Assembly (NCBI GenBank): GCA_039182865.1
Contig: JBCDBX010000003.1
Span: 1,343 to 65,342, forward strand
Length of the DNA stretch: 64,000 nucleotides
From: Pseudomonadota bacterium
GTDB taxonomy: Bacteria; Pseudomonadota; Gammaproteobacteria; UBA4575
Reading direction: 5' to 3'
The translations under genes and the position numbers were made by a program. The notes below the pieces were generated by a model. The model saw only the letters and a list, made by a program, of their open reading frames with translations, was not told where the DNA came from and did no database searches. This document shows positions 8,194 through 52,266 of the stretch, in pieces. Position 1 is the first letter of the stretch, and each line of letters starts with the position of its first letter.

Positions 8194-8232
8194 AATTATT
8201 TCCAGTTATTACAATAATTCACGCATTCTTAC

Positions 8233-19206: not shown

Positions 19207-19214
19207 TTTATGAT

Positions 19215-20399
19215 TTACCTGCTTTGAGCCATTGTCCCTATAACATTAGATCCGTTGTCATCCTCTTCGACCATAAAGTCTTCAGTGCCCTGGAGCAAAT
19301 CCTTATCTTGAGATGACTTACTTTCCAACTTCAATCGTAGTCGTAAATCATTTACTGAATCAGCATTACGCAAACCATCTTCAACGCTGATCATGCCTTC
19401 ATCTATTAATTCAAATAAGTGCTGATCGAATGTTTGCATGCCTAATTCTCTTGATTTTGATATTAATTCTTTCATCTTAGGGACATCGCCTTTAAAAATT
19501 AGATCTGCCATTAGAGGTGAATTAATCATGACTTCAATTGCTGGCACACGACCCTCCTTGCCTTTGATTGGCAATAGTCTCTGAGAGATGATCGATTTAA
19601 GATTCAACGAGAGATCCATTAAGAGTTGATCGCGTCTTTCTTCAGGGAAGAAGTTAATAATTCTATCCAATGCTTGGTTGGTACTATTAGCGTGTAATGT
19701 TGCAAGACATAAGTGCCCGGTTTCCGCAAATGCAACCGCGTATTCCATTGTTTCACGATCTCGAATCTCACCAATCAGAATTACGTCAGGCGCTTGTCTT
19801 AATGTGTTTTTCAGTGCGATTTCATAATTTTCGGTATCAACGCCCACTTCACGCTGCGTCACAATACAATTGCGATGTTTATGCACAAATTCGATAGGAT
19901 CTTCGATAGTAATAATGTGGCCTTGACTGTTTTCATTTCGATAACCAATCATAGAGGCTAGCGAAGTTGACTTACCACAGCCCGTTCCACCTACAAAAAT
20001 AACTAAGCCACGCTTTGCCATTGATATTTCTTTAATAACATTTGGCAAGCGCAGATCATCAATCACTGGGATCTCAGAATTAATAATACGCAACACCATG
20101 CCAGATGTATTTCTTTGCATGAATGCATTCACACGGAAGCGTGAGATATTAGGCAGGCTTATAGCAAAATTACATTCCTGCGTTTCTTCATATTCCCTGA
20201 TCTGACGATCATTCATGATTGATCGGACAATTACCTGTGTATGAGCTGCAGTGAGTGGCTGATTAGTAATCGGTACTAATTTGCCATCGACTTTCATCGA
20301 AGGTGGTGCTCCTACAGTGACGAATAAATCCGAACCTTCTTTTTGCAGCATGTTACGCAATAGGTCATGCATAAATGCTATGGCTTTATCTCTATCCAT
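19215..20399 (-). CDS. pilU: PilU-like type IV pilus retraction ATPase
   Basis: 394 aa with Walker A GGTGCGKST, Walker B DVILIGEIRD and His box TLHANSTNQALDRI. Located immediately downstream of pilT. Confidence 0.8.
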   Translation of the reverse strand: MDRDKAIAFMHDLLRNMLQKEGSDLFVTVGAPPSMKVDGKLVPITNQPLTAAHTQVIVRSIMNDRQIREYEETQECNFAISLPNISRFRVNAFMQRNTSGMVLRIINSEIPVIDDLRLPNVIKEISMAKRGLVIFVGGTGCGKSTSLASMIGYRNENSQGHIITIEDPIEFVHKHRNCIVTQREVGVDTENYEIALKNTLRQAPDVILIGEIRDRETMEYAVAFAETGHLCLATLHANSTNQALDRIINFFPEERRDQLLMDLSLNLKSIISQRLLPIKGKEGRVPAIEVMINSPLMADLIFKGDVPKMKELISKSRELGMQTFDQHLFELIDEGMISVEDGLRNADSVNDLRLRLKLESKSSQDKDLLQGTEDFMVEEDDNGSNVIGTMAQSR

Positions 20400-29450: not shown

Positions 29451-32400
29451 TTAGCTCGCATAGTTTTCATCTGCTAAATTTTGAATTGCTGGATAGTTTA
29501 ACTTACCTGTGCCCAGCACGGGAATTTCTTTTAACACTAAAATCTCTCTTGGCACCATCAATTCACTGCCACCGCGTTGTGAAAAATATTCTTGTATAGA
29601 CTTCCTATCAGCATACTGTTGGGTCGTGACCAATATTAATTTTTCACCTTTTCGCTCATCTGACACTGCACATACACAGTGCTGTTCATGCGGCCACAAA
29701 GCACCAATCCAGCCTTCAACTTGCGTTAAAGAAATCATCTCACCGCCAATTTTCGCAAATCGTTTAGCTCGGCCCAGTATAGTAAGAAAGCCCTCATTAT
29801 CAATATCGACAATGTCACCCGTATCATGCCAACCTTCACTAGGGGGCTGAAGAATTCCTGGTTTATCCGCCTTTAGGTAACCCAACATGATATTGCAGCC
29901 ATTCACAAACAGTCGCCCTCCATGATCAATACCCGGTACACTTTCTAACTTTGCATTGATACCAGGAAATAAGCGCCCAACTGATCCCTCTTTATAATGG
30001 CTGTAGTTATTAATGCTAAGCGCAGGTGAGGTTTCGGTGACGCCGTAGCCCTCAAATATTCGTACGCCAAATTTTGCCATCCACTTTTCTCGAGTCGATT
30101 GCTTTAACTTTTCAGCACCTGCAATCACATAACGGGTAAATTGAAAGTCTTCGTTATCACCATGTTTAGCGTAACCGCTAAGAAAGGTATCCGTACCAAA
30201 TATCACCGTCGTTTGAGTGTCATAGACTAGCTCCGGCACTATTTTATAATGCAGTGGTGAAGGATATAAAAATGTTCTAATTCCACATGAGATAGGCAAC
30301 ACTAGCCCTACTCCAAGACCAAATGAATGAAATACGGGCAAAGCATTAAAAAAACGATCCCTAGATGAAAAGTCTAAGCATGCCCTGACTTGTGCTTGAT
30401 TCGATAACAAATTTTTATGACTTAATACTACACCTTTGGGAGTGCCCTCTGAGCCTGAAGTAAATAATACAACTGCTGCATCTTCCGGTCTGCGTTGCTT
30501 AGTAAATATCCCCCATTTAGTTTTAGCTTTAAATAAGCCGACAAGTTTATCTACAAGACCAATACTCTGTTTTACATCCTCAAGATAAACTAAATTGACT
30601 TTTTGCTTGAGACTTTCTTCTAAGACTTCAAGCTGTGCCAATTCAATAAACTTGCGCGAGGTTAATACGGTTTTTATTTCTGCTGTTTCTATCGCCGATA
30701 AAACACTATCTTTACCTGCAGTAAAATTAAGCATTGCTGGCACAGCACCAATATTTTGTAGCGCATAAAAAGTGACAGCTGTCGGAATTGCATTGGGCAA
30801 TAAGACCCCTGTATTTTCACCAGATTCTGCATATCGACTCAAGCTTCTACCTAATACAATAGATCCCAAAAGCAGCTTATTCAATGTAATAGGGTTACGC
30901 TGAATATCATCTAATATTTCAAAATTTCCACCCTTTAACTTAATAGAGTCTGTTAGTACACGAAATAAAGTGGTATCAGTATTTGTTGTCTGATATATAC
31001 AATCAGTCATCACATCATAAACGACTCTGCGTAATGCACGCTTCTTTGCCTCGCCATGTAAATCCCGGGAGATATTAATTTCTGCTGGCGGACAGATTGT
31101 TATAGTGATCTTTGGGAGTACTCTTTGCTTAACCAGACCTTTGAGTCTTCCAAATCCCGTGAGATGAGCACCATCGATTCTTACAGGGATAAATTTTGCT
31201 CTACCTAATTCGGCTATTTTTCCTGGGCCTTCGTAAATCTTCATTAGACTACCCGTATTAGTGATGCGACCTTCTGGAAAAATAACAACTCTCCTACCAT
31301 CGCGAAGCATCTTAATTAAGCTTTTGATTGCCATTGGCTGGGAAGAATCCAAAGGGAACATCTCAAAAAATTGAGTGAATATTTTAACCCACCATCTTTT
31401 ATTAACATCTGTGTTAATCGCAAACACAGGCATATCAGGCAAATAGCTCATCAACAAAGGTCCATCTAAAAAAGAAGTATGATTAGAGACAATCACATAA
31501 TGACCTTTATCATTGGGATAATTCTCTAATCCCCGAACATCTACCCTATATAAAAGTTTAAATAGTATTCGTCCAAAAGTTTTCATTGAATCACTAGGAA
31601 TAATTTTCATAATGAATAACGCTACCAAAAAATTAAGTATTGCCAACATCCAAAATAAATCTGGGATAGTAAATCCTTGTTTCAAAACTAAGATAACAAG
31701 AATAGAAGCCATCACCATAAACAAGGCATTTGAAATGTTATTCGCAGCGACAGTCCTTGAGCGACGTTTGTTTTCGACTCGTTTTTGTAAAAGCGTATAT
31801 AGAGGAACGATATAAAATCCCGCCGATACCGCCAACACCAACATGTCAATGAATGCACGCCAATGTTGTGGATGTTTTATGAATTCATTTAAAGTGTAAT
31901 GAGCATTAGGACTAGAATGCTGTGATATTTGCTCACTTGCCAAATACAAATCGAGACTAAATATTGACATCAGTATCGCTGCCAATGGTACATACCTAGC
32001 ACTGATATCACCTTTTAAAATTCGGCTACACAATAGCGAACCGATGCCTATACCTATAGTAAACATCACCAATGCAAAAACTGCCACATCCTCGTTGCCA
32101 TGATATACATCAGCAATAAGAGGATTAATCTGCGACTGCATCACATATCCCAAAAACCAGAACCAAGATATGCCGAAAATTAATCGTTTAATGTCCCAAC
32201 GATCAGTTCCTAATTTATAAATATCATAAGTTTGTTTAAAGACATTGGCACTTAGGTGTATAGAGGGATTAGCACTTACCAACTTTGGAATTAAAAAACT
32301 AATTGACCATCCTAATCCCGCGCACACAAGAAGGACAATTGCTATATTTTTTGAGCCTTCATTACCTAAGATTAATAAACCGCCAACAATAGTTCCCAAT

Positions 32401-32873
32401 AATATTGATAAGAAAGTACCCGCTTCAATTAAAGCATTACCCGATAGCAGTTCTTTATCTTTAAGCAATTCTGGAAGAATTCCGTATTTAGAAGGACCAA
32501 ATAACGCAGACTGCAAACCTGTTAACATTAAGCACATAAATAAAAGGACTACATCATCTTTCATAAATGCATATGCTGCAGTTAAAAGTACTAGCATTTC
32601 AAATGCTTTGATGTAACGAATTAGGCGATTCTTTTCATACTTATCAGCTAAAAGACCACCAAATGCAGAAAAAAGAAAGAAAGGCAGAATAAACAAGCCT
32701 GCAGCTGCCATGTTTAATATAGATGCTTGCATACCTAGCTCTGTTGCAAACTTATATGTGATCAAAATCAGCAGTGCTGATTTAAAAACATTATCAGTAA
32801 ATGCACCTAGAAATTGCACGCAAAACATTGGCGCAAATCGCTTGGTAAAAAGTAAAAAGAATAATTGACTCAC
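29451..32873 (-). CDS. aas: Tri-domain lysophospholipid transporter LplT / 2-acyl-GPE acyltransferase / acyl-ACP synthetase fusion (Aas)
   Basis: 1140 aa. The N-terminal MFS region is colinear with LplT (VQFLGAFTDN...). The middle is a PlsC-like acyltransferase (VIVSNHTSFLDGP). The C-terminus is an AMP-binding acyl-ACP synthetase (TSGSEGTPKGVVLSH...). Confidence 0.8.
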   Translation of the reverse strand: MSQLFFLLFTKRFAPMFCVQFLGAFTDNVFKSALLILITYKFATELGMQASILNMAAAGLFILPFFLFSAFGGLLADKYEKNRLIRYIKAFEMLVLLTAAYAFMKDDVVLLFMCLMLTGLQSALFGPSKYGILPELLKDKELLSGNALIEAGTFLSILLGTIVGGLLILGNEGSKNIAIVLLVCAGLGWSISFLIPKLVSANPSIHLSANVFKQTYDIYKLGTDRWDIKRLIFGISWFWFLGYVMQSQINPLIADVYHGNEDVAVFALVMFTIGIGIGSLLCSRILKGDISARYVPLAAILMSIFSLDLYLASEQISQHSSPNAHYTLNEFIKHPQHWRAFIDMLVLAVSAGFYIVPLYTLLQKRVENKRRSRTVAANNISNALFMVMASILVILVLKQGFTIPDLFWMLAILNFLVALFIMKIIPSDSMKTFGRILFKLLYRVDVRGLENYPNDKGHYVIVSNHTSFLDGPLLMSYLPDMPVFAINTDVNKRWWVKIFTQFFEMFPLDSSQPMAIKSLIKMLRDGRRVVIFPEGRITNTGSLMKIYEGPGKIAELGRAKFIPVRIDGAHLTGFGRLKGLVKQRVLPKITITICPPAEINISRDLHGEAKKRALRRVVYDVMTDCIYQTTNTDTTLFRVLTDSIKLKGGNFEILDDIQRNPITLNKLLLGSIVLGRSLSRYAESGENTGVLLPNAIPTAVTFYALQNIGAVPAMLNFTAGKDSVLSAIETAEIKTVLTSRKFIELAQLEVLEESLKQKVNLVYLEDVKQSIGLVDKLVGLFKAKTKWGIFTKQRRPEDAAVVLFTSGSEGTPKGVVLSHKNLLSNQAQVRACLDFSSRDRFFNALPVFHSFGLGVGLVLPISCGIRTFLYPSPLHYKIVPELVYDTQTTVIFGTDTFLSGYAKHGDNEDFQFTRYVIAGAEKLKQSTREKWMAKFGVRIFEGYGVTETSPALSINNYSHYKEGSVGRLFPGINAKLESVPGIDHGGRLFVNGCNIMLGYLKADKPGILQPPSEGWHDTGDIVDIDNEGFLTILGRAKRFAKIGGEMISLTQVEGWIGALWPHEQHCVCAVSDERKGEKLILVTTQQYADRKSIQEYFSQRGGSELMVPREILVLKEIPVLGTGKLNYPAIQNLADENYAS

Positions 32874-33363: not shown

Positions 33364-36300
33364 TTACTTATAGCTATTCAGAAGACTACGCATTGTATTG
33401 GTATCAAATTTAATACGTAATTTTGCAAATGGTCCATCAGCTGTATATTCGGCACCACTGAAGTCATCGTCCTCAAACCCATCAAAATTATATCCAAGAC
33501 TCACCCAAACATTTTGATAAACATTGACACCTACCGATGGGCCAAATGAATATCTAAAGTTCTCAGAGTTGCTTGAATTCAAAATAGAGGTTTGGAAAGA
33601 AAGGTCAACACGACGATGAATATCATAACGATATCTAAAACCAAGTAATTGAGTAAAACCATCAAACTCATCACCATCGATATCATCAAGCACATATTTG
33701 GCACCCCAATGTATGCCTAATTGATGCAGATCATCAACAGTATAATTTAAGTTAAGATTATTAATTAGTGATCTTGAACGAATATCTAATGAATCACTTA
33801 CATCTTCACTAAATGAAAATTCTAAACGATTTAATATCGTATATGGACTATGGTCAGGTCTAAACGCAAGTGCATATGTCGCATCAGCAGTAACATTATT
33901 GCCACCGCCTTTTGTATCTGTTTCAAATATCTGAGTATCAAACGACATGCCTAAGCCTGTAAACTCTTCGCTATAGAGACCAAACAAGACACCGCGTTGT
34001 ATATCTGTGTCACTGGTACGATACTCCATCCTAGACGCTGCCGACCAATTTGTTTGCACATAATTCGCACCAAGAGAAAGCGCAGTAAAATCACCTGACA
34101 CACTTCCTGATGATAATGGAACGTTGTCATTAAATGGTGTTACACCCTCATCATTCAATGTATCCAATCTGTCAACACTGACATCTAATGACAAATGATC
34201 GTTGTATTGCCAGCCTTGCGTCAAACCCAAATTACTAAACAAGCGTTTTCCATTCTCACCTGATTGCTGTTCTACACTGGTATTAATTTCAGCCTGACTC
34301 CAAGGAATTAAACGTGTTCCAATCCGTGTTGTATTGGTATCCTGATCTTCACCTTGGGTATACTCATGTTCAGTAAATAATTCAGAAATTTCATTTAATT
34401 TATAATCCGCACCTGCAATATAACGTGTAGGATAATCAACAGAGTTGTCTGAGTTTACATCTATCTCGGCATTGGCACGCAAATTAAGTCTATTATCCAT
34501 TAACCTCTTTGCAGCTCCTGCGGTAACGAGTACAGATTCTCTATCTTCCTGTTGTGATAATTCATCTTTTGCATATGCCAAACCGGCAGCAAGACCATAT
34601 CCATTTTTATTATAGTTGAGCTCAACGTCTGCAACCGTACGTTTATTATTGTCAGATAAAACCTCATCACGAAATGCCTGACCATTGACTTCTACTGATT
34701 CATTAACACGATATCTCAGATCTGCACCATATCGTTCAGCACCATCATTGTTCTGACTTTGTTGATCTAAACCAAACCCTTCATCTTGCCTGCGGTAATA
34801 CACCAATGTATTGATTTTTTCTGTGCGGTGTTCTACTTCGGCCAATAACGCATCATTATTTTCATCACCATCTCCTGTATCAACACTACTGCGTGCTGCC
34901 TCTAAACGTACTTGAGTCTGCTCAGAAACGTTATATTCAAAATCTGCGCCAATAAGATCACCATCGGCATCTTCATCGCCCTGAGTAATAGCACTGATTC
35001 CGACTTCTATGCCGCGCTCTTTATCATATAAAGCAGCACGAATTCCGGCAGTTAATTCCTTATCTCCAGAGTTCTCTACTTCATAATCTGCAACAATAAA
35101 AACTGGATTAAAGTTTTGGTCGCGACTTGGGATCGGCTGTTTAAAGAATATCGTGCCATTATTAGTATCAATCGTGTAATCAACAAATTGTGTCAGTTGC
35201 ACATCACTGATAATTATATTGGGCTGAAATCTATCGCGTGTCACAATTGATACCTGCTCACTATTAATCACAATATCATTGTTCGATAACTGATATAGCC
35301 CCGAGGTACCATTCCCTTGAATTTCATCTTGCACAAATCTTTGATCGGTTTCAGACGCAAATGCATTAAAGCCAAATCGATTCCCCTCATATTCTGCTTT
35401 AGCGCCCGTTAAACTTCGTGTATATCTAGAGAGTTCTGTCACATCCATGTCTGTATTAAAATCACCAAATAAAGTATAAAACTGATTCTTCTCAAGTCTT
35501 ACATATAGCTTATCAGAGCTTGCGGCATCAAATTGTTGTTCAGTCGCATCTCCATAAAGCGTGTAATATTCATCTGGTGCGATTGTTTGGAATAACCTGT
35601 CATCTCTCTCGTCATCTCCACGTTCAGAGTCATAAGCCAGTGTCAACAACCATTCACCTTTAACCTGACCTTTGGCATAAAAGGCTAGGCGACCATCCTC
35701 ATAAAAATCTTCTTCAATATTATTATCACTTAAAGCACGCGCATTGCCAGAGACATTGTTATAACCTGTAGACCCCTCTGCAAGTCCAACTAAGATCCAT
35801 TCTTTTTGGACAGCTTGAATCCATGCATCTATAGATTCTTCTCGATCGTCAATAAATAAAAAATCTAGCGTTAGCTTACCGCCTAAAGTTGAAGGTTCAA
35901 TATCGATAAATGCGATACCATCTTGCTCAACTTTATATGTCAATCTACTAGAAGTAAGGCCATTCAAAGGTTGTTTGTCTAGCTCTCTTGTCTCTTGAAG
36001 CGACGTATAACCTTGAGAAAGTCCGTATTCGCCAATGATTTCTGGGCGTGCAGGGTAACCCCATTTGTCGAAAAACTTGACGGCAAGAACAATGGGGTTC
36101 TTACCATCTGCGATCAACCTTGAATATTCCGGAACTAACTGTGCTTTAATAGGCTGTCCAGAATAATGTATTGTTTGAGTAACCTGCTCCAACTGAATAT
36201 CATCTTCGCTATACGTGGTAGCAACAAAAACATTATCACCCTCTACAAGATCAACACCCTTCCAGCGATCAATTAATTTCTTCTTATCAGAACTAGTCGT

Positions 36301-39300
36301 TCTAGAATCAAAATTAAGTGCACTGACTTCTTTACCATTAAGCTCTAATTTTAGTTTTGTATTTACAGCACGCTTAATCTCAATCTGTATCGCGTTGATA
36401 AAAGGATTATAATTATCTCTGGGTGATAACCATTGCAATGAGTCATCCTGCTGATTCAACCATGTGACTGTAAACTCTGCTTCTTCAGCAACTGGCAAAC
36501 TCTCCCTTGGATGTACATAGTCACCAATCAACTCGTGTTTATTTAATAACTCTTGCTCACTCTTGTTGTTAGTGTTTCTGACAAATTTATCATCACCATC
36601 GATGATTATAGTATTCTCGATCACAGGAGATTGTGAGTTCAAGTTGCCCTCATGGTCATAAGTTAGCAAAAACTCTGTTTTATATTCACCATTAGCAAGA
36701 GATGGCATTTTTGCACTCAGTTCTAACACATACGTCCAATCACTGGTTTGTGGCACTCCAAGACTTATATTCAATGTCCCAAATAAGTTTCTCGCTTCAT
36801 AACCACTTTTACCATTCACCTTTATACTATCTTGAATAAATTTAAACTCACTAGGCAATATCACACTCGCATTAATATTACCTAAAGGCTGTTGTATACC
36901 TTGTAGCGTCATCGTATATCTAACTAGATCATTAAGTACTACACTATCAATCTGGGTATGTAATTTTCCTTTTTCTGGTGGTTTTTCTTTTAAGTAAAAA
37001 TTTGAACGCCATAACAATCCTGCATCGATATCCGCAAACTGTGACATCTTTGAACCGGCAGTACGCGTATTTTGCACACATTCTTGTATTTCTAGATGAT
37101 TAGGTATACTACTAGGATCAATTTGAATAACATGTGTCCCTGGCTCTAGCCCTTCAAAGTGGTACATCCCTCTTTGGTCTGTTAATACATATCGGCCATC
37201 TTCTAAAACCAAGCGTATCCCCTCAACGCCTTTCATTGTTGGTATGCCAACGAACTTAACTCTACCCTTGGCTTTTGATTTTTTAACAAATAGTTTTTTA
37301 CTTTCGCTATCTGATGAAGAATTAAATGTGTATATCGTATTAATAATATCGTAATGACTCTCAAATTTAGCTTCTGATTCACTTACTTTTAAATAGGCTT
37401 CAATAACGTACTGACCAGTTTTCTCGTTGCTCACTTTAGTACTAAATGTGAGTCTTATAGAATCTAGCTGTGTATCACTTCCTAAAATATATTTAAGGCT
37501 ACCTGATTGTATAATTGGCTCTGATATTTTCTTGTTATTCAATTCTGAGGAATCTGGAACATAGCTAAGGCCATCTGGTAAGTTGAAATTAACCTCAATT
37601 GGATAATCTAGGTTCGGTAACTTTGAGATGCTTAATTCATTAAGTAATTTATCGCCAACTTTTTCAGTCAACATGTGATAAGTAGCACTCCCATAATCAA
37701 TTTTATTTTCATTTTTACATGTCCCCTCAGTGACGGTACCAATCAAGAAACTCTTTGAAGAAATCAAATCATCTTGTACATCAACGACGGCTTGCGCATC
37801 TCTAGATCTGAACCCAACAGAATCTGTAGCAAATACAGTATTTATAGCATTACCAAACGGAGTACCTGAAGAAACTTCTACAACATATTTAACTGTAACG
37901 GTCTCACCCGATGGGATATCGCCCAATGCAATAGTAATCGAAGTGCCATTATTGGCAATATTAGGATCTGCTTGCTTAACGCTATCGAATTGCAAAGAGT
38001 CTTTTTGATATCTAAAGCCAGTAGGTAGAGAATCTAAAAGATTTACGTCAATAGCTGAATTACTTGAATTGTTGTTAGTGACTGTGATCTGGTACTGCAA
38101 AAAGTCTCCAATGCCGACAACGTCTTTTGAAGCTTGTTTACTAACAAAAAGTACATCACTGATTGGGTCAATAGGAATATCAACATGTAGTGGCGGACCA
38201 ACGACTAATGGAAAATCCAATCCAAATGATGCATTAGCATCTAGAGAAAACGGAGCATTTGGTAATGTTTGTAAGGTTGCGATGCTGACGGTAGATGGAA
38301 TAACAAAATCATCGGCCGTGACTTCAAGTCTATATGTACCCGCTGCAACGAATGGAAACCGATATTCACCCGCAGCAAATGTAAAAGTTGCACCCGAACC
38401 ATCTGTCACATCATTACCGGTGACCATGGTTGAAGGATATGAAATTGTTCCAGCAGGATCTGAAAATACTGTTGCGGGTAAACCTGTTATCGCATCAATC
38501 AATGTGATAGTAAGTCCACTTACAGGCGCACCATTGTCACTGCTGAAGACAATACCGAATGGATCAATAAGTACTCTTTCTGATGCAGCATCAGTTACAT
38601 CAAAAGCATCTATATAATCTATTGTAATCGTATCACCCGATTCAACCGCAAACTGGCAGTCAAATATAGCAATTGGTGTTTCTACTGTTTGGATAAAGCC
38701 AACAAATTCGCCTGTATTATTCCCTGTTTCCATCAACTCAATGACTTCACGGTCATTAGTTGCATCTGAGCTGATGTTAATTACAAGCAGATCTGGAATA
38801 TTTATATCAAAGTTTCTGTTGGCGTCAGTGACCTTGATAAAAATAGGATTGCCGCTGCTAATCGAAGGAGCCGGCAATAAATTAACTGGGTTTGAAATAT
38901 CTATCGTACCTACTAATGGATAAGTTGGATTTGGCAATGGTGTGAATGTGCCTGTGTTTCCAACACTACAACCTGTTGGCGAAACATCACCATTAAGACC
39001 ATCCCCATTTGGTGAAAATTGTAATATCTCAAGAGTGGCGTCACTAAATATTATTGATGTTGTAACATCAACCGTATTGGAATTTCGAGTTTGCGGCGTA
39101 GCAGATACATCATAATTTGCAACCGCAGTGTTAGAAATGACGGTACCAGGTGGTACCGCAAAGAGAGTGTTTGAAGAAGAAATAAACAAAAAAACAGCAC
39201 ACAATAAAAGCAGTAAAGCCTGTTGTACTTTAAAGTATTCAACAGGCTTGATGGCTTTTTTATTTGCCTTCCGCGCACACTCATGACACGGATATTGTCT

Positions 39301-39318
39301 AGTTGCAGTCCTTTGCAT
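33364..39318 (-). CDS. Giant secreted DUF11-domain protein with Ig-like/carboxypeptidase-regulatory-like repeats and a roughly 700-aa C-terminal predicted outer-membrane beta-barrel
   Basis: 1984 aa. Long N-region then hydrophobic core ...ALLLLLCAVFLFISSSNTLFA|VPPGTVISNTA. DUF11-like segment GDFLQYQITVTNNNSSNSAIDVNLLDSLPTGFRY. CarbopepD_reg-like GVEGIRLVLEDGRYVLTDQRGMYHFEGLEPGTH. The C-terminal third is Y/G/D/N-rich with alternating amphipathic strands ending ...FAKLRIKF. Confidence 0.65.
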   Translation of the reverse strand: MQRTATRQYPCHECARKANKKAIKPVEYFKVQQALLLLLCAVFLFISSSNTLFAVPPGTVISNTAVANYDVSATPQTRNSNTVDVTTSIIFSDATLEILQFSPNGDGLNGDVSPTGCSVGNTGTFTPLPNPTYPLVGTIDISNPVNLLPAPSISSGNPIFIKVTDANRNFDINIPDLLVINISSDATNDREVIELMETGNNTGEFVGFIQTVETPIAIFDCQFAVESGDTITIDYIDAFDVTDAASERVLIDPFGIVFSSDNGAPVSGLTITLIDAITGLPATVFSDPAGTISYPSTMVTGNDVTDGSGATFTFAAGEYRFPFVAAGTYRLEVTADDFVIPSTVSIATLQTLPNAPFSLDANASFGLDFPLVVGPPLHVDIPIDPISDVLFVSKQASKDVVGIGDFLQYQITVTNNNSSNSAIDVNLLDSLPTGFRYQKDSLQFDSVKQADPNIANNGTSITIALGDIPSGETVTVKYVVEVSSGTPFGNAINTVFATDSVGFRSRDAQAVVDVQDDLISSKSFLIGTVTEGTCKNENKIDYGSATYHMLTEKVGDKLLNELSISKLPNLDYPIEVNFNLPDGLSYVPDSSELNNKKISEPIIQSGSLKYILGSDTQLDSIRLTFSTKVSNEKTGQYVIEAYLKVSESEAKFESHYDIINTIYTFNSSSDSESKKLFVKKSKAKGRVKFVGIPTMKGVEGIRLVLEDGRYVLTDQRGMYHFEGLEPGTHVIQIDPSSIPNHLEIQECVQNTRTAGSKMSQFADIDAGLLWRSNFYLKEKPPEKGKLHTQIDSVVLNDLVRYTMTLQGIQQPLGNINASVILPSEFKFIQDSIKVNGKSGYEARNLFGTLNISLGVPQTSDWTYVLELSAKMPSLANGEYKTEFLLTYDHEGNLNSQSPVIENTIIIDGDDKFVRNTNNKSEQELLNKHELIGDYVHPRESLPVAEEAEFTVTWLNQQDDSLQWLSPRDNYNPFINAIQIEIKRAVNTKLKLELNGKEVSALNFDSRTTSSDKKKLIDRWKGVDLVEGDNVFVATTYSEDDIQLEQVTQTIHYSGQPIKAQLVPEYSRLIADGKNPIVLAVKFFDKWGYPARPEIIGEYGLSQGYTSLQETRELDKQPLNGLTSSRLTYKVEQDGIAFIDIEPSTLGGKLTLDFLFIDDREESIDAWIQAVQKEWILVGLAEGSTGYNNVSGNARALSDNNIEEDFYEDGRLAFYAKGQVKGEWLLTLAYDSERGDDERDDRLFQTIAPDEYYTLYGDATEQQFDAASSDKLYVRLEKNQFYTLFGDFNTDMDVTELSRYTRSLTGAKAEYEGNRFGFNAFASETDQRFVQDEIQGNGTSGLYQLSNNDIVINSEQVSIVTRDRFQPNIIISDVQLTQFVDYTIDTNNGTIFFKQPIPSRDQNFNPVFIVADYEVENSGDKELTAGIRAALYDKERGIEVGISAITQGDEDADGDLIGADFEYNVSEQTQVRLEAARSSVDTGDGDENNDALLAEVEHRTEKINTLVYYRRQDEGFGLDQQSQNNDGAERYGADLRYRVNESVEVNGQAFRDEVLSDNNKRTVADVELNYNKNGYGLAAGLAYAKDELSQQEDRESVLVTAGAAKRLMDNRLNLRANAEIDVNSDNSVDYPTRYIAGADYKLNEISELFTEHEYTQGEDQDTNTTRIGTRLIPWSQAEINTSVEQQSGENGKRLFSNLGLTQGWQYNDHLSLDVSVDRLDTLNDEGVTPFNDNVPLSSGSVSGDFTALSLGANYVQTNWSAASRMEYRTSDTDIQRGVLFGLYSEEFTGLGMSFDTQIFETDTKGGGNNVTADATYALAFRPDHSPYTILNRLEFSFSEDVSDSLDIRSRSLINNLNLNYTVDDLHQLGIHWGAKYVLDDIDGDEFDGFTQLLGFRYRYDIHRRVDLSFQTSILNSSNSENFRYSFGPSVGVNVYQNVWVSLGYNFDGFEDDDFSGAEYTADGPFAKLRIKFDTNTMRSLLNSYK

Positions 39319-39325
39319 TAATGAG

Positions 39326-39350
39326 ATGCGCGGACTTCATGTCCGCGCAT
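39326..39350 (-). promoter_or_regulatory. GC-rich perfect hairpin in the 5' leader of the giant gene (intercistronic between genes C and D)
   Basis: ATGCGCGGAC-TTCAT-GTCCGCGCAT: 10-bp stem, 5-nt loop, 8 nt upstream of the annotated ATG at 39318. Anomalously GC-rich for this genome. Confidence 0.4.
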
Positions 39351-44509: not shown

Positions 44510-44968
44510 ATGAGACAAGCCCACGCACATAAACAATGTATTACCAATGCGCTCGAGCGTGCTGATCGGATCTGTCTCCAAAATGGGAAAAGACTAACTC
44601 CTACGCGCAAGAGAGTATTAGAATTAATTTGGCAAAGTCATAAACCTATCAAAGCTTATGATTTATTGGCACAGTTAAGTACAGGCGATCATTTAGAAAA
44701 ACCTCCCACCGTATACCGTGCTTTAGATTTTTTATTAGATAACAATTTAATACATAAAATTGAAAGTACCAATAGTTACATTGGTTGTGAATATGAACAT
44801 ACAGAGAATGATAGTAAATTTTTTATTTGCGATATTTGTAATGAGGTCAAAGAGCTTGATGAACCCAAACTAAATAAGACATTAGAAGAAGCTAGCAGCA
44901 AACAGGGGTTTAAACCAAATCAAACAAAAGTTGAAATACATGGCACATGTGCCAAATGTTCTGACTAG
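44510..44968 (+). CDS. zur: Zinc uptake regulator (Fur family)
   Basis: KPPTVYRALDFLLDNNLIHKIESTNSY is near-identical to the E. coli Zur DNA-binding region. C-terminal CDIC...C..C metal site. Confidence 0.8.
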   Translation: MRQAHAHKQCITNALERADRICLQNGKRLTPTRKRVLELIWQSHKPIKAYDLLAQLSTGDHLEKPPTVYRALDFLLDNNLIHKIESTNSYIGCEYEHTENDSKFFICDICNEVKELDEPKLNKTLEEASSKQGFKPNQTKVEIHGTCAKCSD

Positions 44969-44970
44969 TC

Positions 44971-45390
44971 ATGCAGATTTTATTAGATCGTTTTGCGATT
45001 TTACTTTCTGGCTTGTGCGCAATTCATTGTATCGCATTACCTATAATGGCAGCTATCTTACCAATACTATCTACTACCTATCATCATGGAAACCAGTTAC
45101 ATGAATTTTGGTTCCACCAATTCATTCTGTATTTTATAGTTCCTGTAAGCATCATTGCTTTAGTATCTGGCTATCGTTCACATAAGAAATTGCTTCCCAT
45201 AGTGATTGCATCTATTGGCTTATTAATATTATCAGTAACTGCATTATTTATTGACCAATTACTCATGCGTCATGTTATTTCTCATGACGGTGAAATGCTC
45301 ATGACGCTTACAGGAGGAATAATTCATGCAACGGGTCATATTCTGAACTTACAAGCAACTAGGAAGTCACACCAACCATGCAAAGTATAA
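44971..45390 (+). CDS. MerC-like small membrane protein (putative metal transporter)
   Basis: 139 aa, 4 TM, N-terminal LSGLCAIHCIALP cysteine-containing helix. Translationally coupled to zur (3-nt gap). Confidence 0.45.
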   Translation: MQILLDRFAILLSGLCAIHCIALPIMAAILPILSTTYHHGNQLHEFWFHQFILYFIVPVSIIALVSGYRSHKKLLPIVIASIGLLILSVTALFIDQLLMRHVISHDGEMLMTLTGGIIHATGHILNLQATRKSHQPCKV

Positions 45391-45944
45391 AATCTTTTTT
45401 TACTATAGTACTCTTATTACTATCAACGATCCTTATTGCCAGTGAAGATCATCATGATCACGACCATGACCATGGATTTGAACAACATGCAGCCCATGTA
45501 CATGGTCAAGCAACAGCTAACATCTCTTATGAAAATAATATACTCAATATAGCATTTAGCTTTCCAGCTATCGATATTTATGGATTTGAACATGCCGCTA
45601 AAACAAATGAAGAAGTCCAGGCTATAGATAACGCACTTTCTTTGTTTCGTGATAGCAGTAATATATTAGTTATGACACCTGAGTGTGAACATGAATCACA
45701 TGATCACGATCACTCTACTAGTCATGACGATGAGGATGGACACCATGAGCATGAAGAGCTAGAACATAGTGATGTTGAAGTAAGCTACGAATTCAAGTGT
45801 GACACAAAATCACCCATTAAAATTAAATTTGTATTATTCAATAGCTTCACAAGTTTAGAAGAAATTAATGTACAATTTATCTCAGATAATATGCAACAGT
45901 TATTTAATGTAACCTCCAACAACCAGACTATTACAATCAATTAA
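45378..45944 (+). CDS. zrgA: ZrgA-like periplasmic His-rich zinc-binding protein (DUF2796)
   Basis: Signal peptide, then EDHHDHDHDHG... and ECEHESHDHDHSTSHDDEDGHHEHEE His/Asp runs. First gene of a zrgABCD-like unit. Confidence 0.6.
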   Translation: MQSIKSFFTIVLLLLSTILIASEDHHDHDHDHGFEQHAAHVHGQATANISYENNILNIAFSFPAIDIYGFEHAAKTNEEVQAIDNALSLFRDSSNILVMTPECEHESHDHDHSTSHDDEDGHHEHEELEHSDVEVSYEFKCDTKSPIKIKFVLFNSFTSLEEINVQFISDNMQQLFNVTSNNQTITIN

Positions 45945-46633
45945 TGATAGATTCTCAGAAATGTATACAAATTTCTGAACTTTCATTTCGTTGGCCTGAG
46001 AGCGCTTCAGCACTTTTGAATATTCCTAGCCTGTCTATTACTCAAGGCGAATCTATATTTATACAAGGTAGCAGTGGTAGTGGCAAATCCACATTACTTA
46101 ATTTAATTACGGGCGTACTTCTACCAAATAAAGGAAATATAACCATCCTAGGTTCAAACCTGAATGATCAAAATCATAATGATCAATTTCGCGTGGATCA
46201 TTTTGGCATCATTTTTCAACAATTTAACCTAATCCCATATCTTAATGTCTTTGAAAATATTACATTACCTCTTTCTTTTTCGATGCGACGAAAAACCAGA
46301 CTAGAAATAGCACATAAATCACTTAAAGCAGAAGCCACGCGGTTACTCGATTCCTTGAGCTTAGTAGGCGATAACATTCAACAACGTAATGTAACCGAAT
46401 TAAGTACTGGTCAGCAGCAGCGTGTTGCTGTTGCGCGAGCATTAATTGGCTCCCCAGAGATTATAATTGCAGATGAACCTACATCAGCTCTTGACGCAGA
46501 TGCTAAACAGGATTTTCTAGATTTATTGTTTCAAGAAAGTAAGCATTCTCATAGCACCCTTATTTTTGTCAGCCATGATCAAACCCTCTCTAATAAGTTT
46601 GACCGCATACTCTCTATGAGTGAATATAAATAA
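45944..46633 (+). CDS. ABC transporter ATP-binding protein (ZrgB-like)
   Basis: Walker A GSSGSGKST, signature LSTGQQQRVAVARAL, Walker B IIIADEPTSALD. Confidence 0.8.
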   Translation: MIDSQKCIQISELSFRWPESASALLNIPSLSITQGESIFIQGSSGSGKSTLLNLITGVLLPNKGNITILGSNLNDQNHNDQFRVDHFGIIFQQFNLIPYLNVFENITLPLSFSMRRKTRLEIAHKSLKAEATRLLDSLSLVGDNIQQRNVTELSTGQQQRVAVARALIGSPEIIIADEPTSALDADAKQDFLDLLFQESKHSHSTLIFVSHDQTLSNKFDRILSMSEYK

Positions 46634-47912
46634 TAATCTGATTATGCAATTAAAATTGCTCAGTCTCGCAATCAAAAGCTTAAGATTTAGGAAATTCTCA
46701 GTTGGCCTGACAATTTTTTCACTCGCGATCAGTATTATGCTGTTATTTGGGGTGGATACAATTCGTGTTCAGACAAAGTCTAATTTTGTTAATACTATCT
46801 CTGGTACAGACTTAATTGTCGGCTCTCGTAGCGGATCTGTGCAATTACTTCTATATACGGTTTTTCATATTGGTAATGCCACCAATAATGTCTCCTGGCA
46901 AAGTTATGAGAAGATCATTAAACATCCCCGTGTTGCATGGACCATTCCAATTTCACTAGGGGATTCACACAAAGGCTATCGTGTGGTTGGAACGACTCAA
47001 GATTATTTTACTCATTATCGCTACCATAGAAATAAGCAACTTGAGTTAAAAGATGGCCAACAATTCGAAAATTTGTTTGAGGCTGTTATTGGTGCAAATG
47101 TTGCCAAAGAACTCAGCTACATACTTGGAGATGAGATAATATTAGCTCATGGCATGGGTAATGTTAATCTAGCCCAACACAAAAACCTGCCATTCTCTAT
47201 CACAGGTATTTTAGAGCCCACTGCCTCTCCCGTTGATAATAGTATTTTTATCTCTTTACCTAGTTTAGAGGCGATCCATATTGGTTGGGAATTTGGTGTT
47301 GCAACTAATACAACGCTTACCGCCGATGATATTAAAGATGATGATCCACGCTTAGAGACCAAGTCCATTACCGCATTTTTCTTGGGCTTAAAAAGCAAGC
47401 ATGATGTATTCAGCATCCAGCGCGCGATAAATGATTATAAACAAGAACCACTGCTTGCGATCATACCTGGTGTCGCTTTGCTAGAACTATGGAAAGTCAT
47501 CGGCGTTGTAGAGACAATATTACTGCTTATAGCTGGACTAGTCGTCATCACAGGATTATTTGGCATGCTAGCAATTATACTGACCAATCTTAATTCGCGT
47601 AGAAGAGAAATTGCAATATTACGTTCAGTTGGTGCATCACCCCTAGCTATTTTATTTATGATGATTATTGAAACCGAATTATTAGTCATCATTGGGATAT
47701 TAATCGGTTTAGGCCTAATGTACTCCTCTTTAATTATCCTGAATTCAGTACTTCAGGACACCATTGGCCTTACGATTGAACTTATGCCTCCTTCACTTTT
47801 CCAATGGACATTATTAGGTAGTATTTTATTGGCTGGATTCATCATTTCATTCATTCCAGCATTTAGCGCTTATCGAAAAACATTACAAGATGGTTTATCT
47901 ATTCGCTCATGA
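46620..47912 (+). CDS. ABC transporter permease, FtsX/MacB-like (ZrgC-like)
   Basis: 430 aa with an N-terminal TM, a large periplasmic domain and C-terminal FtsX-type 3-TM bundle. Confidence 0.7.
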   Translation: MNINNNLIMQLKLLSLAIKSLRFRKFSVGLTIFSLAISIMLLFGVDTIRVQTKSNFVNTISGTDLIVGSRSGSVQLLLYTVFHIGNATNNVSWQSYEKIIKHPRVAWTIPISLGDSHKGYRVVGTTQDYFTHYRYHRNKQLELKDGQQFENLFEAVIGANVAKELSYILGDEIILAHGMGNVNLAQHKNLPFSITGILEPTASPVDNSIFISLPSLEAIHIGWEFGVATNTTLTADDIKDDDPRLETKSITAFFLGLKSKHDVFSIQRAINDYKQEPLLAIIPGVALLELWKVIGVVETILLLIAGLVVITGLFGMLAIILTNLNSRRREIAILRSVGASPLAILFMMIIETELLVIIGILIGLGLMYSSLIILNSVLQDTIGLTIELMPPSLFQWTLLGSILLAGFIISFIPAFSAYRKTLQDGLSIRS

Positions 47913-48454
47913 TCAATCTATTAAGATCTTTATTGCTTATATTATTACTCACTAGCGTAGGGCTAGCCTCACAGCCTCGCATTGTCGAATGGGATGAACT
48001 GATGCCGCCTGGCTACCTCGACTCTCTGATTGAACTCATGTCAGAAAGTAGTTTTAGCATTACCAATATTTTTAGTTTTGATGACGATACTGAAGAAGCA
48101 CAGAATGCTTATGAACAAATGCAAGACTTACTTAATTCGGCTCCCATAGTGCCAGAGTTAAATAATCAAGATGTCAAAATTGCCGGGTTTGTTGTACCTC
48201 TAGACTTCGACTTTGATACAGAAACTTTTCAGAGTTTTTTGCTCGTCCCTTACTTTGGTGCATGTATTCACACACCACCGCCACCTTCAAATCAAATTGT
48301 TTATGTCACCTCTGATAAAAGACTAAATCAAGAGTTATTAGATTATGCAGTATGGGCATCAGGCAAACTCAGCACCGAAAGCAAAGAAAATCTATATGGT
48401 GTTGCCGGTTACTCGATGGAGAATGCAACATTAGAAGAATATATAGAAGACTAA
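47909..48454 (+). CDS. DUF3299-like periplasmic protein (ZrgD-like)
   Basis: 181 aa with a signal peptide, overlapping the permease stop. Last gene of the zinc cluster. Confidence 0.45.
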   Translation: MINLLRSLLLILLLTSVGLASQPRIVEWDELMPPGYLDSLIELMSESSFSITNIFSFDDDTEEAQNAYEQMQDLLNSAPIVPELNNQDVKIAGFVVPLDFDFDTETFQSFLLVPYFGACIHTPPPPSNQIVYVTSDKRLNQELLDYAVWASGKLSTESKENLYGVAGYSMENATLEEYIED

Positions 48455-49818: not shown

Positions 49819-52176
49819 CTAGCGATTCTCTAAGCGGCTGTAATCAAACAAGCTGTAATTAATTGGATCTTTCTGCTCAAAATTTGAATGCAATTGGTCA
49901 CTGTGTTGCCAAAAGTTCTCGGCTGTGCGACGAATTCCATATATCGCCATAAAGTCAGAATATTTCTGATTAGAATTAATTTTTAACACACGATCCACAA
50001 GCATATCTAGTTGGTCTTCATAAACATGCCAAAATGTATTGGGATAGGCACCTATAAAACCATTGACTACTGTCACTGTATCTTTAACTGGACTACGGCT
50101 GTCTTTCTCATCGAATAATGTCGTAACATTTTTATGTGCATCGTTTCTGATTAAAGTGAATACACTTAACTTACCTTCACTATTCTCTATACTTAAAAAA
50201 GTAACATCTGACAACTCCTGAACAGCTCTATTTGGTATTGCATTTAATGCCTCTAATGCATCAAGGTAATTTTGAGGCGTGTTATCTTTATTAATATTAA
50301 AGCCTTGATCCTTGATATCGGATACACGCTGACTCAACAATCCAAGCAGTTCCTCTCTAGGCTCATTGGTTTTGTATGAAATGTTTGTCTCATGAAAAAA
50401 TTGCTCATTCACAGCATCAAAGTAATCATTGACATGTTTATCCGCATCCTCATACCACTCCTGCCACACTTGTTGCCGAGCATCACGAGGAAGCATTTCA
50501 ATAAAATTTATTTCAGACTCCATACGTAAAAAGTCCATATAAAGACGTGTAAGCAATTGATGTCCGACATTCCCAAATACATTGTAGCCAGCGACTAGTA
50601 AATAATGAATTCGCTCAAAAATTGAGTAGTCAATTACCCATGCGGTCTCAGGTTTCTTGCCCACGAGACCTCGCACAACCGAGGCACTATCAAAATGTCT
50701 AAACACGGTTAAAGCAGCATTCGGATTTTTACCTTCACCATTCCAAATAAGATCTAAATTTATTTTTTCGCTCTGCTCAAATAATTGTTCTTCGTATTGA
50801 TATTTATTCTTGAGATAGGTTTTTTGCTGCGTGGCATATGAGCGCCAATCAGTAATGGTAAGTAATACAGGATTACCCTTACCCGCCGGTAACTGCAAAT
50901 TACTGCTATTAATGGCTAAAAACTCTGCATTATCCGCGGGTAGTGATACGTTAGGGTTAGAAAAGAATACCCAGAAACGATCTCGAATCACATCTAGCGC
51001 AATCTGCCCACGACAAACAGGGCCCTTCATGAATGCCATAATAATTTTTTCGGCATCATCCAACATAAAGCGATAACGCGAATCTACTGGTAACTGTTGA
51101 AAAGCCACAAACGGATTACTTGCTACCTCAGCTTGATAAGAAACCTTATCTTTAACTCCATATTCAGGCTGAAAAAACAATTGTTTCCAACGTTCTAATC
51201 GAGCATCGCTCAACTCATAGGGCATATGTGTTTTTGAGACCAAGGTTGCATCTACGACTTTTAAGCGGTAATAAAAATTGTTCACCCCAGGATCATCATA
51301 GGGTCTGACAGTATCAATAAGCTCAATCGCTTCTCCTGTCGGAGTATACGAACGCACTAACTGAAAATAATTTAACTCTGCATCATCTTGATAATACAAA
51401 TGAAATAAATATAGATGCTCAAAAATATAACGGCTAACTAATTGTGACTTCAATGATGCTTGATTAAAAAACGCCTCCCATCGTTCTACTTCTTTTTGTA
51501 AATTATCATTTAAAGGAGCAGGACTAGCCATCGGTGCATTCGCATCTATCCATTCAACCAAAGTTGATTGCTCCTGTTGTGATAATGCGGGCAAACCATA
51601 TGGCATTCCCCATAAAGGGAAACGTTTAGAGAATTCGTCAAATTGATAAATATTGGGACACGCTTGGCTTCGATTTAAGTCTAAGGTGATATCTTTAGGT
51701 AACAAGGCTAGACCCGGTAATGGATGCTGATTTTTTAATTCTAAATATCGATATATAAGACTCGCTTTACGATTGGTGTCTTCACTTGCTTCACCTTCAT
51801 TTAAGACTGGATAAAAACCTTTTTTTCGCCATTCCTTTGTAGTGTATGCATCTGCAGAAGGACTGACATGCTCAGCAGCAAGTATGCGAGCACCATCATA
51901 AACGCGTTCTTTATTAGCGCCACGATCAATACCTGCAGGACTGGTTAGCTTCAATTGACAAGGAGCATCATAACAACCATGACAAACTACGCAGCGTTTA
52001 TCAAAAATGGGCTTGATATCTGTTTGATATTTTTGACCCCATTCAGAATCAAATGCTACATATCTTTCTTGGAATGAAGATGAATCATATTCATTGGCTG
52101 CAAACAGTGCACAACCCGTTATCGATATGATAAGTAGGGTAAATAAAATAAGTTTAGAATCCTGACGCCTTTTCAT
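49819..52176 (-). CDS. cti: Periplasmic fatty-acid cis/trans isomerase (Cti), heme c-type
   Basis: Lipoprotein-like signal (LLIISITGC) followed by the Cti heme-binding motif CVVCHGCYDAPCQLKL. Roughly 785 aa, which is the Cti size. Start set at the ATG at 52176; the ORF track extends to 52236. Confidence 0.75.
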   Translation of the reverse strand: MKRRQDSKLILFTLLIISITGCALFAANEYDSSSFQERYVAFDSEWGQKYQTDIKPIFDKRCVVCHGCYDAPCQLKLTSPAGIDRGANKERVYDGARILAAEHVSPSADAYTTKEWRKKGFYPVLNEGEASEDTNRKASLIYRYLELKNQHPLPGLALLPKDITLDLNRSQACPNIYQFDEFSKRFPLWGMPYGLPALSQQEQSTLVEWIDANAPMASPAPLNDNLQKEVERWEAFFNQASLKSQLVSRYIFEHLYLFHLYYQDDAELNYFQLVRSYTPTGEAIELIDTVRPYDDPGVNNFYYRLKVVDATLVSKTHMPYELSDARLERWKQLFFQPEYGVKDKVSYQAEVASNPFVAFQQLPVDSRYRFMLDDAEKIIMAFMKGPVCRGQIALDVIRDRFWVFFSNPNVSLPADNAEFLAINSSNLQLPAGKGNPVLLTITDWRSYATQQKTYLKNKYQYEEQLFEQSEKINLDLIWNGEGKNPNAALTVFRHFDSASVVRGLVGKKPETAWVIDYSIFERIHYLLVAGYNVFGNVGHQLLTRLYMDFLRMESEINFIEMLPRDARQQVWQEWYEDADKHVNDYFDAVNEQFFHETNISYKTNEPREELLGLLSQRVSDIKDQGFNINKDNTPQNYLDALEALNAIPNRAVQELSDVTFLSIENSEGKLSVFTLIRNDAHKNVTTLFDEKDSRSPVKDTVTVVNGFIGAYPNTFWHVYEDQLDMLVDRVLKINSNQKYSDFMAIYGIRRTAENFWQHSDQLHSNFEQKDPINYSLFDYSRLENR

Positions 52177-52266
52177 TTTAAACTCTTTTGAAATCATTCT
52201 GACAAAAATACTGACTTTGATCATCTTATAAGACAAAGAAAGTACACTAAATTATATATTCTCGAA

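Follow-up and report, generated by a model that had tools for sequence, protein, structure and literature searches.

A giant predicted outer-membrane barrel protein encoded beside three genes for small secreted proteins, and its possible role as the anchor of a split-domain fibre

A stretch of 64,000 nucleotides (nt) from a gammaproteobacterial genome (Pseudomonadota bacterium, GTDB lineage Bacteria; Pseudomonadota; Gammaproteobacteria; UBA4575; GenBank assembly GCA_039182865.1, contig JBCDBX010000003.1, forward-strand positions 1,343 to 65,342), hereafter the window, carries on its minus strand a gene for a protein of 1984 amino acids (aa), hereafter the giant. What would such a protein be for: is it an autotransporter-like adhesin with an oversized barrel, as a sequence-only reading of the same DNA had proposed, or part of something else? 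Our analysis supports, with high confidence, an overall architecture of a Sec signal, a stalk of immunoglobulin (Ig)-like domains and a giant barrel, encoded within a conserved cassette of four genes (S1-S2-S3-Giant). We propose, at slightly less than an even chance, that the giant is the outer-membrane anchor and translocon of a fibre built head to tail by strand complementation, possibly with isopeptide bonds.

Full-length homologues of the giant are numerous, with more than 160 scored at 33-59% identity. With only the barrel as query, 1.84 billion representatives yielded 3,333 clusters at 50% identity (1,331 at E<=1e-30), in which the barrel is always C-terminal and the proteins mostly measure 1,600-2,400 aa, and a scan of one genome per species placed the family in at least 584 species. 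It is common in sediment, soil and marine Proteobacteria, in Nitrospirota and in other phyla, with Acinetobacter haemolyticus w12 (plasmid p4), Novosphingobium sp. THN1 and Oceaniserpentilla sp. 4NH20-0058 as candidate cultured carriers; a published description was not found in the searchable literature. The cassette survey took 82 fetched loci, called their open reading frames (ORFs) and used the three genes lying just before the giant as queries. The order S1-S2-S3-Giant recurs in 50 of the approximately 60 loci with enough upstream flank, spanning Gamma- and Deltaproteobacteria, Nitrospirota, Lentisphaeria and Verrucomicrobiota and including a syntenic relative (locus L002). S1 measures ~330-370 aa, S2 ~160-180 aa and S3 ~350-430 aa, and all three have signal peptides.

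The C-terminal ~770 residues of the giant are confidently predicted to form a very large outer-membrane barrel, whose closure we infer from the model. AlphaFold2 was run on residues 930-1984 with a 42-sequence alignment (mean pLDDT 80.7, pTM 0.71), and strands were taken from the DSSP output of that one model, which reads in order two beta-sandwich domains, six long strands, a 70-residue insert, 32 long strands and a terminal helix. The count of 38 takes the segments 386-395 and 397-405 (model numbering) for a single kinked strand and, being even, is what a barrel with both of its ends in the periplasm requires. From strand 7 on, connections of 2-5 residues alternate with occasional loops of 10-20 residues, the longer ones all on the predicted extracellular side, and along many strands hydrophobic residues alternate as they do in membrane strands. 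Most PDB structures that Foldseek matched to the barrel model at E<=0.001 are large outer-membrane barrels, including SlpA, MtrB, LptD, BtuB, FimD/PapC and SprA; with TM-scores of only ~0.2 (range 0.15-0.38), none of them is a close structural relative. Pfam OMP_b-brl scored 29.6 bits on residues 1424-1984 alone, against a cut-off of 28.7. A PDB sequence search with the whole protein gave no match, and a PDB profile search no barrel relative. Going by the model, the giant would class as an outer-membrane beta-barrel protein, that is, a BAM substrate. A soluble beta-solenoid, the outcome that the sequence-only reading had named as fatal to its own barrel, was rejected, as AlphaFold2, Foldseek and OMP_b-brl all indicate a transmembrane barrel. 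That reading also judged the size well and misplaced the boundary: the barrel starts near residue 1206, not 1250.

With ~38 predicted strands, the barrel would exceed any solved one, the largest single-chain barrel with a structure being SprA, with 36 strands (bioRxiv 10.1101/2022.10.09.511469; 10.64898/2026.03.07.710327). An unnamed barrel superfamily of 'at least 40 strands' was mentioned, with no detail, by Solan et al. 2021; it could not be linked to the giant family. The 70-residue insert is plug-like and lies within the most conserved stretch of the family; Pfam found no match in this stretch (residues 1181-1423) or in the two pre-barrel domains. The lack of the usual terminal aromatic residue had been read as atypical. 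The barrel indeed does not end at the C-terminus, but there is no anomaly: its last strand ends in an aromatic F (...AKLRIKF), and the tail that follows is 13 aa long rather than 14, conserved across the family and predicted to be a periplasmic helix. Periplasmic extensions after a barrel are ordinary, as in OmpA and ushers. As a separate observation, residues ~1126-1540 (the second pre-barrel domain and the barrel from strand 1 through the insert to a few strands beyond it) are the most conserved part of the family and, taken alone, match sequences from Sinorhizobium, Devosia, Pelagibacterium and plasmids of cyanobacteria, some annotated 'TonB-dependent receptor'; this module may occur in other architectures.

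Upstream of the barrel, the Ig-like passenger that had been recognised from the sequence was borne out by Pfam matches to CLIPPER/DUF11, CarboxypepD_reg and SdrD_B. A stalk domain at residues ~140-250 (window ~38569-38901), with the motif ...D.DQN.D....ET..V.....GD.E.L.L.ETG.NTG.F, matches by profile the repeated domains of PDB 8C8K (E 8.7e-10), an entry titled 'Cell surface protein' that we take to be an archaeal S-layer protein. Further along, residues 391-499 match DUF11 at 43 bits and, judged by sequence conservation, hold the full Lys-Asp-Asn isopeptide triad (K394, D429 and N493, each 99% conserved), the bond itself being predicted; by profile alignment, N493 falls on Asn806 of the solved isopeptide in PDB 9IFR. 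Most homologues have an OmpA-like peptidoglycan-binding domain inserted at query residues ~905-940 (BLAST mapping), between the stalk and the two pre-barrel domains, and for this reason we place the stalk-to-barrel junction in the periplasm. An OmpA_C-like domain (PF00691) is absent from the window giant and from the rest of the window.

The evidence that suggests a fibre comes from the two ends of the subunits. Just after the cleavage site, S1, S3 and the giant share the motif G-T-x-[IV]-x-N-x-A-x-V-x-Y, followed by a turn and a second strand, and hhalign of the S1 family with the giant's N-terminal region recovers this 33-residue hairpin (probability 90%, E 1.4e-6) as a match standing alone, apart from that of the CLIPPER domains. 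Its Asn is found in 50 of 51 S3 sequences, in at least 90% of 90 S1 homologues and in 95% of 110 giants, where I61, N63 and A65 are conserved at 89-95%. The hairpins of S1, S3 and the giant (I-x-N-x-A) are homologous to one another and resemble the last strands of a CLIPPER/DUF11 isopeptide domain. At the other end, Pfam DUF11 matches the C-terminal CLIPPER domains of S1 and S3 only to position ~82-84 of 114, every member of both families ends just past the strand ...tvtF.VtI[N/D], and S2 ends at the same strand. In a complete CLIPPER domain, Lys and Asp form an isopeptide bond with an Asn of the last strand (PMC12617251). The first-strand Lys of the truncated domain is present in 51 of 51 S1 sequences (K234, alignment A3) and in every S3 sequence that the alignment covers at this point; the D-x-[LI]-P motif has its Asp in 50 of 51 sequences in S1 and likewise in S3. 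S2 has neither the hairpin nor the Lys/Asp pair. N63 of the giant has no conserved partner in its own chain, since K394, the only conserved Lys within the first 1250 residues of the 110 giants, already belongs to the complete triad K394-D429-N493.

At least 17 loci have next to the cassette a protein of 555-1137 aa without the donor motif, ending in a truncated C-terminal CLIPPER domain with Lys/Asp (L002 3869-6265; L021 11320-14031; L027 10952-13822; L001 14003-16939; and ~13 more loci). The N-terminal parts of these proteins are variable and the truncated domain is conserved; we regard them as candidate tip adhesins from their sequences. An S2-like C-terminus, proposed for them along the way, was only partly supported, in that the S2 profile matches just their generic CLIPPER core; their own alignment has the truncated end and the Lys/Asp pair. 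The proteins of the system thus sort into acceptor only (S2 and the tip-like proteins), donor plus acceptor (S1 and S3) and donor only (the giant), as would be expected of a polymer joined head to tail whose base the giant closes.

We therefore propose the following assembly. S1 and S3 would be the fibre subunits, each with an N-terminal two-strand hairpin and a C-terminal CLIPPER domain without the matching strands, and the hairpin of one subunit would complete the C-terminal domain of the next subunit out. The hairpin Asn may then form an isopeptide bond with the Lys/Asp of its neighbour, giving a covalent beads-on-a-string fibre. S2 and the larger tip-like proteins, able to accept a hairpin and unable to donate one, would sit at the distal end. 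The giant would close the chain at the base, because it has a donor hairpin and no open acceptor domain, and the fibre would continue through its Ig-like stalk and the lumen of the barrel to the periplasmic side. For subunits in the periplasm, the cassette would offer no other way to the cell surface than the barrel, and in most species the barrel protein would also be tied to peptidoglycan. Donor-strand filaments with intermolecular isopeptide bonds and with cap or anchor subunits have been described as archaeal threads (PMC9715654) and tafi (PMC11821415). That the cassette represents a new class of pilus, made from split CLIPPER domains locked by spontaneous Lys-Asn bonds, in need of neither sortase nor chaperone, and both exported through and covalently rooted in a single ~38-strand barrel protein, we put forward more tentatively still, as a possibility on the doubtful side.

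The sequence 'grammar' of S1-S3 and the giant fits a donor-strand filament, while chimeras and the monomer model do not discriminate, and several observations weigh against the assembly as drawn. When hairpins were appended to the C-terminal domains of S1 and S3, the Pfam DUF11 alignment reached ~104-106 with no rise in score, and a shuffled hairpin extended the match equally far as the real donor hairpins. In a family-specific hhalign chimera, Asn and Ala of the donor hairpin fell, in the register expected, on their last-strand counterparts in the complete CLIPPER domain of the giant, a suggestive result, with a total score no better. The AlphaFold2 monomer of S1 is compact (pLDDT 92.4), its hairpin ordered as two 12-residue strands, and the model fits completion in cis by the subunit's own hairpin equally well. 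Foldseek with this model returned only generic tandem Ig folds (integrin legs, complement MG domains), with a CfaB pilin fusion at rank 18. Both the number of strands and the closure of the barrel depend on DSSP of a single model, and the surface location of the stalk, the passage of subunits through the barrel and the formation of isopeptide bonds are proposals. Finally, the window cassette is a reduced version, because the tip-like gene and the OmpA domain are both absent from it.

The monomer model and the chimeras would equally suit a giant that is a self-contained adhesin, showing its own Ig stalk through or beside the barrel in the manner of a type V protein, with S1-S3 as separate accessory surface or periplasmic proteins and the S1 and S3 hairpins stapling their own C-terminal domains intramolecularly. 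Stalks of CLIPPER, SdrD_B and CarboxypepD_reg domains are, besides, typical of single-chain fibrillar adhesins (PMC12617251). We consider this unlikely, if worth serious attention, as it leaves unexplained why the giant hairpin keeps a 95%-conserved Asn without any open Lys/Asp domain in the same chain, why S2 and the tip-like proteins have truncated ends and no hairpin, and why four genes stand together in one order across phyla. The orphan hairpin of the giant and the hairpin-less truncated domains of S2 and the tip-like proteins are our reasons for favouring complementation in trans. A different role, that of an envelope scaffold or conduit with the Ig string and S1-S3 in the periplasm or in the barrel lumen, which would link outer membrane and peptidoglycan or make a plugged channel, has comparable cases in Deinococcus SlpA and in MtrB, the sheath of MtrA. 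SlpA (30 strands, a connector from outer membrane to cell wall) and MtrB are also Foldseek's best matches, the OmpA domain lies mid-protein in most homologues, so wide a barrel needs plugging and the predicted loops are all short. This role seems to us slightly less likely than the self-contained adhesin, given that TM-scores of only ~0.2 speak for a generic likeness, that isopeptide-stabilised CLIPPER stalks and an Ig domain of the S-layer type are marks of surface-exposed proteins, that the variable large proteins beside the cassette resemble adhesins and that the window giant does without the OmpA domain yet keeps all else.

Could the giant instead belong to a known secretion family, as an atypical type V autotransporter, a chaperone-usher usher or an SprA-type translocon of type IX? 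The order of passenger and barrel is like that of type Va, the beta-rich insert between strands 6 and 7 takes the position of the usher plug, and FimD, PapC and SprA are among the Foldseek matches. Against this, Pfam and NCBIfam models of these families gave no match, even when isolated segments were searched at E<=10. Pfam Autotransporter (PF03797) found nothing, either in the whole protein (E<=1) or in isolated segments (E<=10); for type Ve inverse autotransporters there is no Pfam match in the giant, and its domain order is the reverse, with the barrel C-terminal. Usher, PapC_N and PapC_C have no match in the giant, with TM-scores to FimD/PapC of 0.15-0.38. No PapD model matches S1-S3, S2 being a single CLIPPER-like domain, and there is no gene for a PapD-like chaperone. 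For SprA/Sov, no PDB sequence matches the giant and the Foldseek TM-score is 0.15-0.18. There is no POTRA domain, and the strand count is unlike that of any of these families (~38 rather than the 12 or 16 of type V). We thus rejected membership of the type V, usher and SprA families and of ESPR (the extended signal peptide region of large type V proteins), and hold a hidden kinship of this sort to be very improbable. Accordingly, the 'autotransporter-like' label of the sequence-only reading is not supported, the more so as most homologues have OmpA at the junction of passenger and barrel. As to the usher plug, a possible counterpart in the giant is its 70-residue beta-rich insert after the sixth DSSP strand, on the periplasmic side.

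If the fibre-anchor model holds, the nearest working analogy would be a cross between a chaperone-usher pilus and the archaeal filaments that are covalent and need no chaperone. Like chaperone-usher pili (FimD/PapC, FimA/PapA), it has genes for secreted Ig-like subunits upstream of one large barrel gene, subunits that begin with a strand and contain an Ig-like domain lacking its full set of strands, tip-like proteins that could only accept, a beta-rich insert after the sixth barrel strand, and a stem-loop between the subunit genes and the platform gene. Unlike them, it has no homology to ushers or PapD and no chaperone gene, and its barrel has ~38 strands versus 24; the donor is a two-strand hairpin with Asn and the acceptor a CLIPPER domain with Lys/Asp, so that a covalent joint is possible; and the platform itself carries a donor hairpin and a long stalk, with an OmpA domain added in relatives. 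In archaea, threads (Saci_0406) and Tat-fimbriae resemble the proposed system in being complemented head to tail by donor strands without a chaperone-usher machine, and threads also in their intermolecular isopeptide bonds and in having cap and anchor subunits encoded beside the major subunit. They differ in having no outer membrane and no sequence relationship to the cassette, whose anchor is a giant beta-barrel, and the thread isopeptide joins an N-terminal amine to an Asn two subunits away instead of Lys to Asn as in CLIPPER domains.

Type V proteins, like the giant, combine in one chain a Sec signal, which is extended in some, with a passenger that is repetitive and adhesin-like and with a barrel at the C-terminus, but their barrels have 12-16 strands and a pore-filling linker, type Va passengers are beta-helices, and there is neither a periplasmic OmpA domain between passenger and barrel nor any co-transported subunit gene. 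SprA/Sov of type IX secretion is likewise a giant single-chain barrel of more than 200 kDa, wide enough for folded proteins; it occurs only in Bacteroidota, takes substrates with C-terminal signals and works with PorV and a Plug protein. The CLIPPER/DUF11 fibrillar adhesins, exemplified by Acinetobacter silvestris B9T28_05395 (PDB 9IFR), have the same isopeptide-forming stalk domain, with a K-D-N triad that aligns residue for residue, and an OmpA-like anchor such as the relatives of the giant have. That adhesin is nevertheless one chain of tandem complete domains with an OmpA-like end and no barrel, and split domains or subunit genes have not been described for it.

Read codon by codon, the minus strand has an ORF of 1984 codons that opens with the ATG at 39318 and closes with the stop codon at 33364-33366, and the protein starts with MQRTATRQYPCHECARKANKKAIKPVEYFKVQQ (n-region) followed by ALLLLLCAVFLFI (hydrophobic core) and SSSNTLFA, with cleavage before VPPGT. 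The unusually long N-terminal region that had been flagged, 33 residues of n-region within a signal region of residues 1-54, is confirmed for the window giant, as is the absence of any in-frame ATG, GTG or TTG between the giant ATG and the core; the nearest later candidates, TTG codons 39 and 44, both lie within the core. The cleavage context small-x-small | VPPGT (A-x-A|VPPGT) and the mature N-terminus are conserved across the family, and the giant carries what we read as a Sec signal peptide with a long n-region, cut before VPPGT. The public annotation of this metagenome-assembled genome (P0001, 'hypothetical protein', 1941 aa, window 33364-39189) begins at TTG codon 44, almost certainly a miscall of the start codon, because a protein that needs export would lose its charged n-region and most of its h-region; such a miscall would hide the giant from secretome predictions.

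That annotation, the absence of a Shine-Dalgarno sequence upstream of the ATG and the partial read-through of a hairpin by the ORF in some clades could be taken to mean that the long region is 5′ leader RNA, with translation from TTG codon 39 or 44 or from a non-canonical codon. We find this hardly credible: starting at either codon would leave a protein that must cross the inner membrane with no charged n-region and a stub of an h-region. The ATG context (ATG-CxA-AGG-AxT-GCA, giving M-[RQ]-R-[IT]-A just past the hairpin) recurs in the closest relatives; the closest of all starts ATG-CGA-AGG-ATT-GCA (MRRIA...), similar to the window giant, and several close homologues start MR[RG]IA. Moreover, 21 of 45 loci with complete 5′ ends have no start codon less than 15 residues from the core. 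In Steroidobacteraceae and Woeseiaceae, the conserved 'peptide' of the N-terminal extension is a translated intergenic hairpin, its substitutions spread near-evenly over codon positions, unlike those of the mature region. Because the ORF in such clades reads through the hairpin, family-wide long signals are partly an artefact of ORF calling: the long n-region is real for the window giant and only partly real as a trait of the family. As the sequence-only reading had noted, it is not an ESPR; Pfam ESPR has no match in the whole protein at E<=1, and the n-region is unrelated to ESPR in sequence and differs between clades. By no more than analogy with what has been proposed for ESPR, it might slow down export of an outer-membrane protein of this size. 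The n-region is basic and has a C-x-x-C motif (P-C-H-E-C at residues 10-14, window 39277-39291, minus strand); n-region cysteines recur in relatives, e.g., CACAQQ and SACYAS.

Between S3 and the giant, the window has a GC-rich stem-loop with z = -3.65 against shuffles. Stem-loops at z<-2 occupy this spacer in 20 of 38 loci (L002, L003, L010, L012, L016, L033, L036, L050, L075 and others), with unrelated sequences and, after some of them, a U-tract; the closest relative has a hairpin of different sequence at the equivalent place before the giant start. In fimbrial operons, intercistronic stem-loops lower read-through or stabilise the upstream message. The S3-giant hairpin is probably an intercistronic attenuator or a stabiliser of messenger RNA, and by analogy it would keep the subunits in excess over the giant. 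Coordinates of all features are collected in Table 1.

Table 1. Features of the S1-S2-S3-Giant cassette, in positions of the window; residue numbers refer to the giant.
Feature	Position	Strand	Remarks
S1, 341 aa	40994..42019	-	signal peptide, donor hairpin (N36), middle domain, truncated C-terminal CLIPPER (K234, D282)
S2, 171 aa	40475..40990	-	signal peptide, one CLIPPER-like domain without last strands, without Lys/Asp pair
S3, 352 aa	39381..40439	-	signal peptide, donor hairpin, middle domain, C-terminal CLIPPER without last strands
GC-rich RNA hairpin	39326..39350	-	AUGCGCGGAC-augaa-GUCCGCGCAU; ends 7 nt before giant ATG
Giant gene, 1984 aa	33364..39318	-	ORF call; last gene of the cassette
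Signal region, residues 1-54	39157..39318	-	33-aa basic n-region, 13-aa h-region, cleavage LFA|VPPG
Mature N-terminal beta-hairpin, residues 55-90	39049..39156	-	VPPGTVISNTAVANY...SNTVDVTT; proposed donor element
Stalk of Ig-like domains, residues 91-929	36532..39048	-	includes CarboxypepD_reg-like and SdrD_B-like domains
Complete CLIPPER/DUF11 domain, residues 391-499	37822..38148	-	triad K394-D429-N493
Stalk/barrel junction, residues ~905-940	36499..36606	-	OmpA insertion site in most homologues
Two beta-sandwich domains, residues ~960-1185	35764..36441	-	AlphaFold2/DSSP, directly before barrel
Predicted transmembrane beta-barrel, residues 1206-1972	33403..35703	-	DSSP ~38 strands
Beta-rich insert, 70 residues (1335-1404)	35107..35316	-	between barrel strands 6 and 7, periplasmic side
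C-terminal tail, predicted helix	33367..33402	-	after ...LRIKF; family consensus KFDQxT...

Other genes of the window deserve a brief mention. A 1140-aa fusion of a major facilitator superfamily transporter, an acyltransferase and an AMP-binding domain (29451-32873, minus strand), Aas/LplT-like and related to lysophospholipid recycling, is syntenic with the cassette in the relative L002. A type IV pilus control region of the Pil-Chp type (2884-9555 and 17884-20399, both minus strand) includes a ChpA-like hybrid kinase of 1769 aa, with three Hpt matches as well as CheW and receiver domains, next to genes for a methyl-accepting chemotaxis protein and for two ATPases of the PilT/PilU type. A zinc-uptake cluster (Fur-family regulator, ZrgA and MacB/FtsX-type transporter) and a fatty-acid cis/trans isomerase lie at 44510-48454 (plus strand) and 49819-52236 (minus strand).

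Even without the fibre model, the giant defines a large family without a described function in the searchable literature. If the model were true, a new assembly pathway would join the few types of bacterial pilus, covalent isopeptide-linked fibres would not be confined to Gram-positive bacteria and archaea, and the split domains would be natural self-ligating pairs of interest to protein engineering, akin to SpyTag/SpyCatcher. The giant would also be the largest single-chain outer-membrane barrel known, and a barrel of 38 strands raises the questions of how BAM inserts a protein of such size and how the pore is closed. For the bacteria themselves, the family may have a bearing on how cells attach and aggregate in sediments, soils and the sea.

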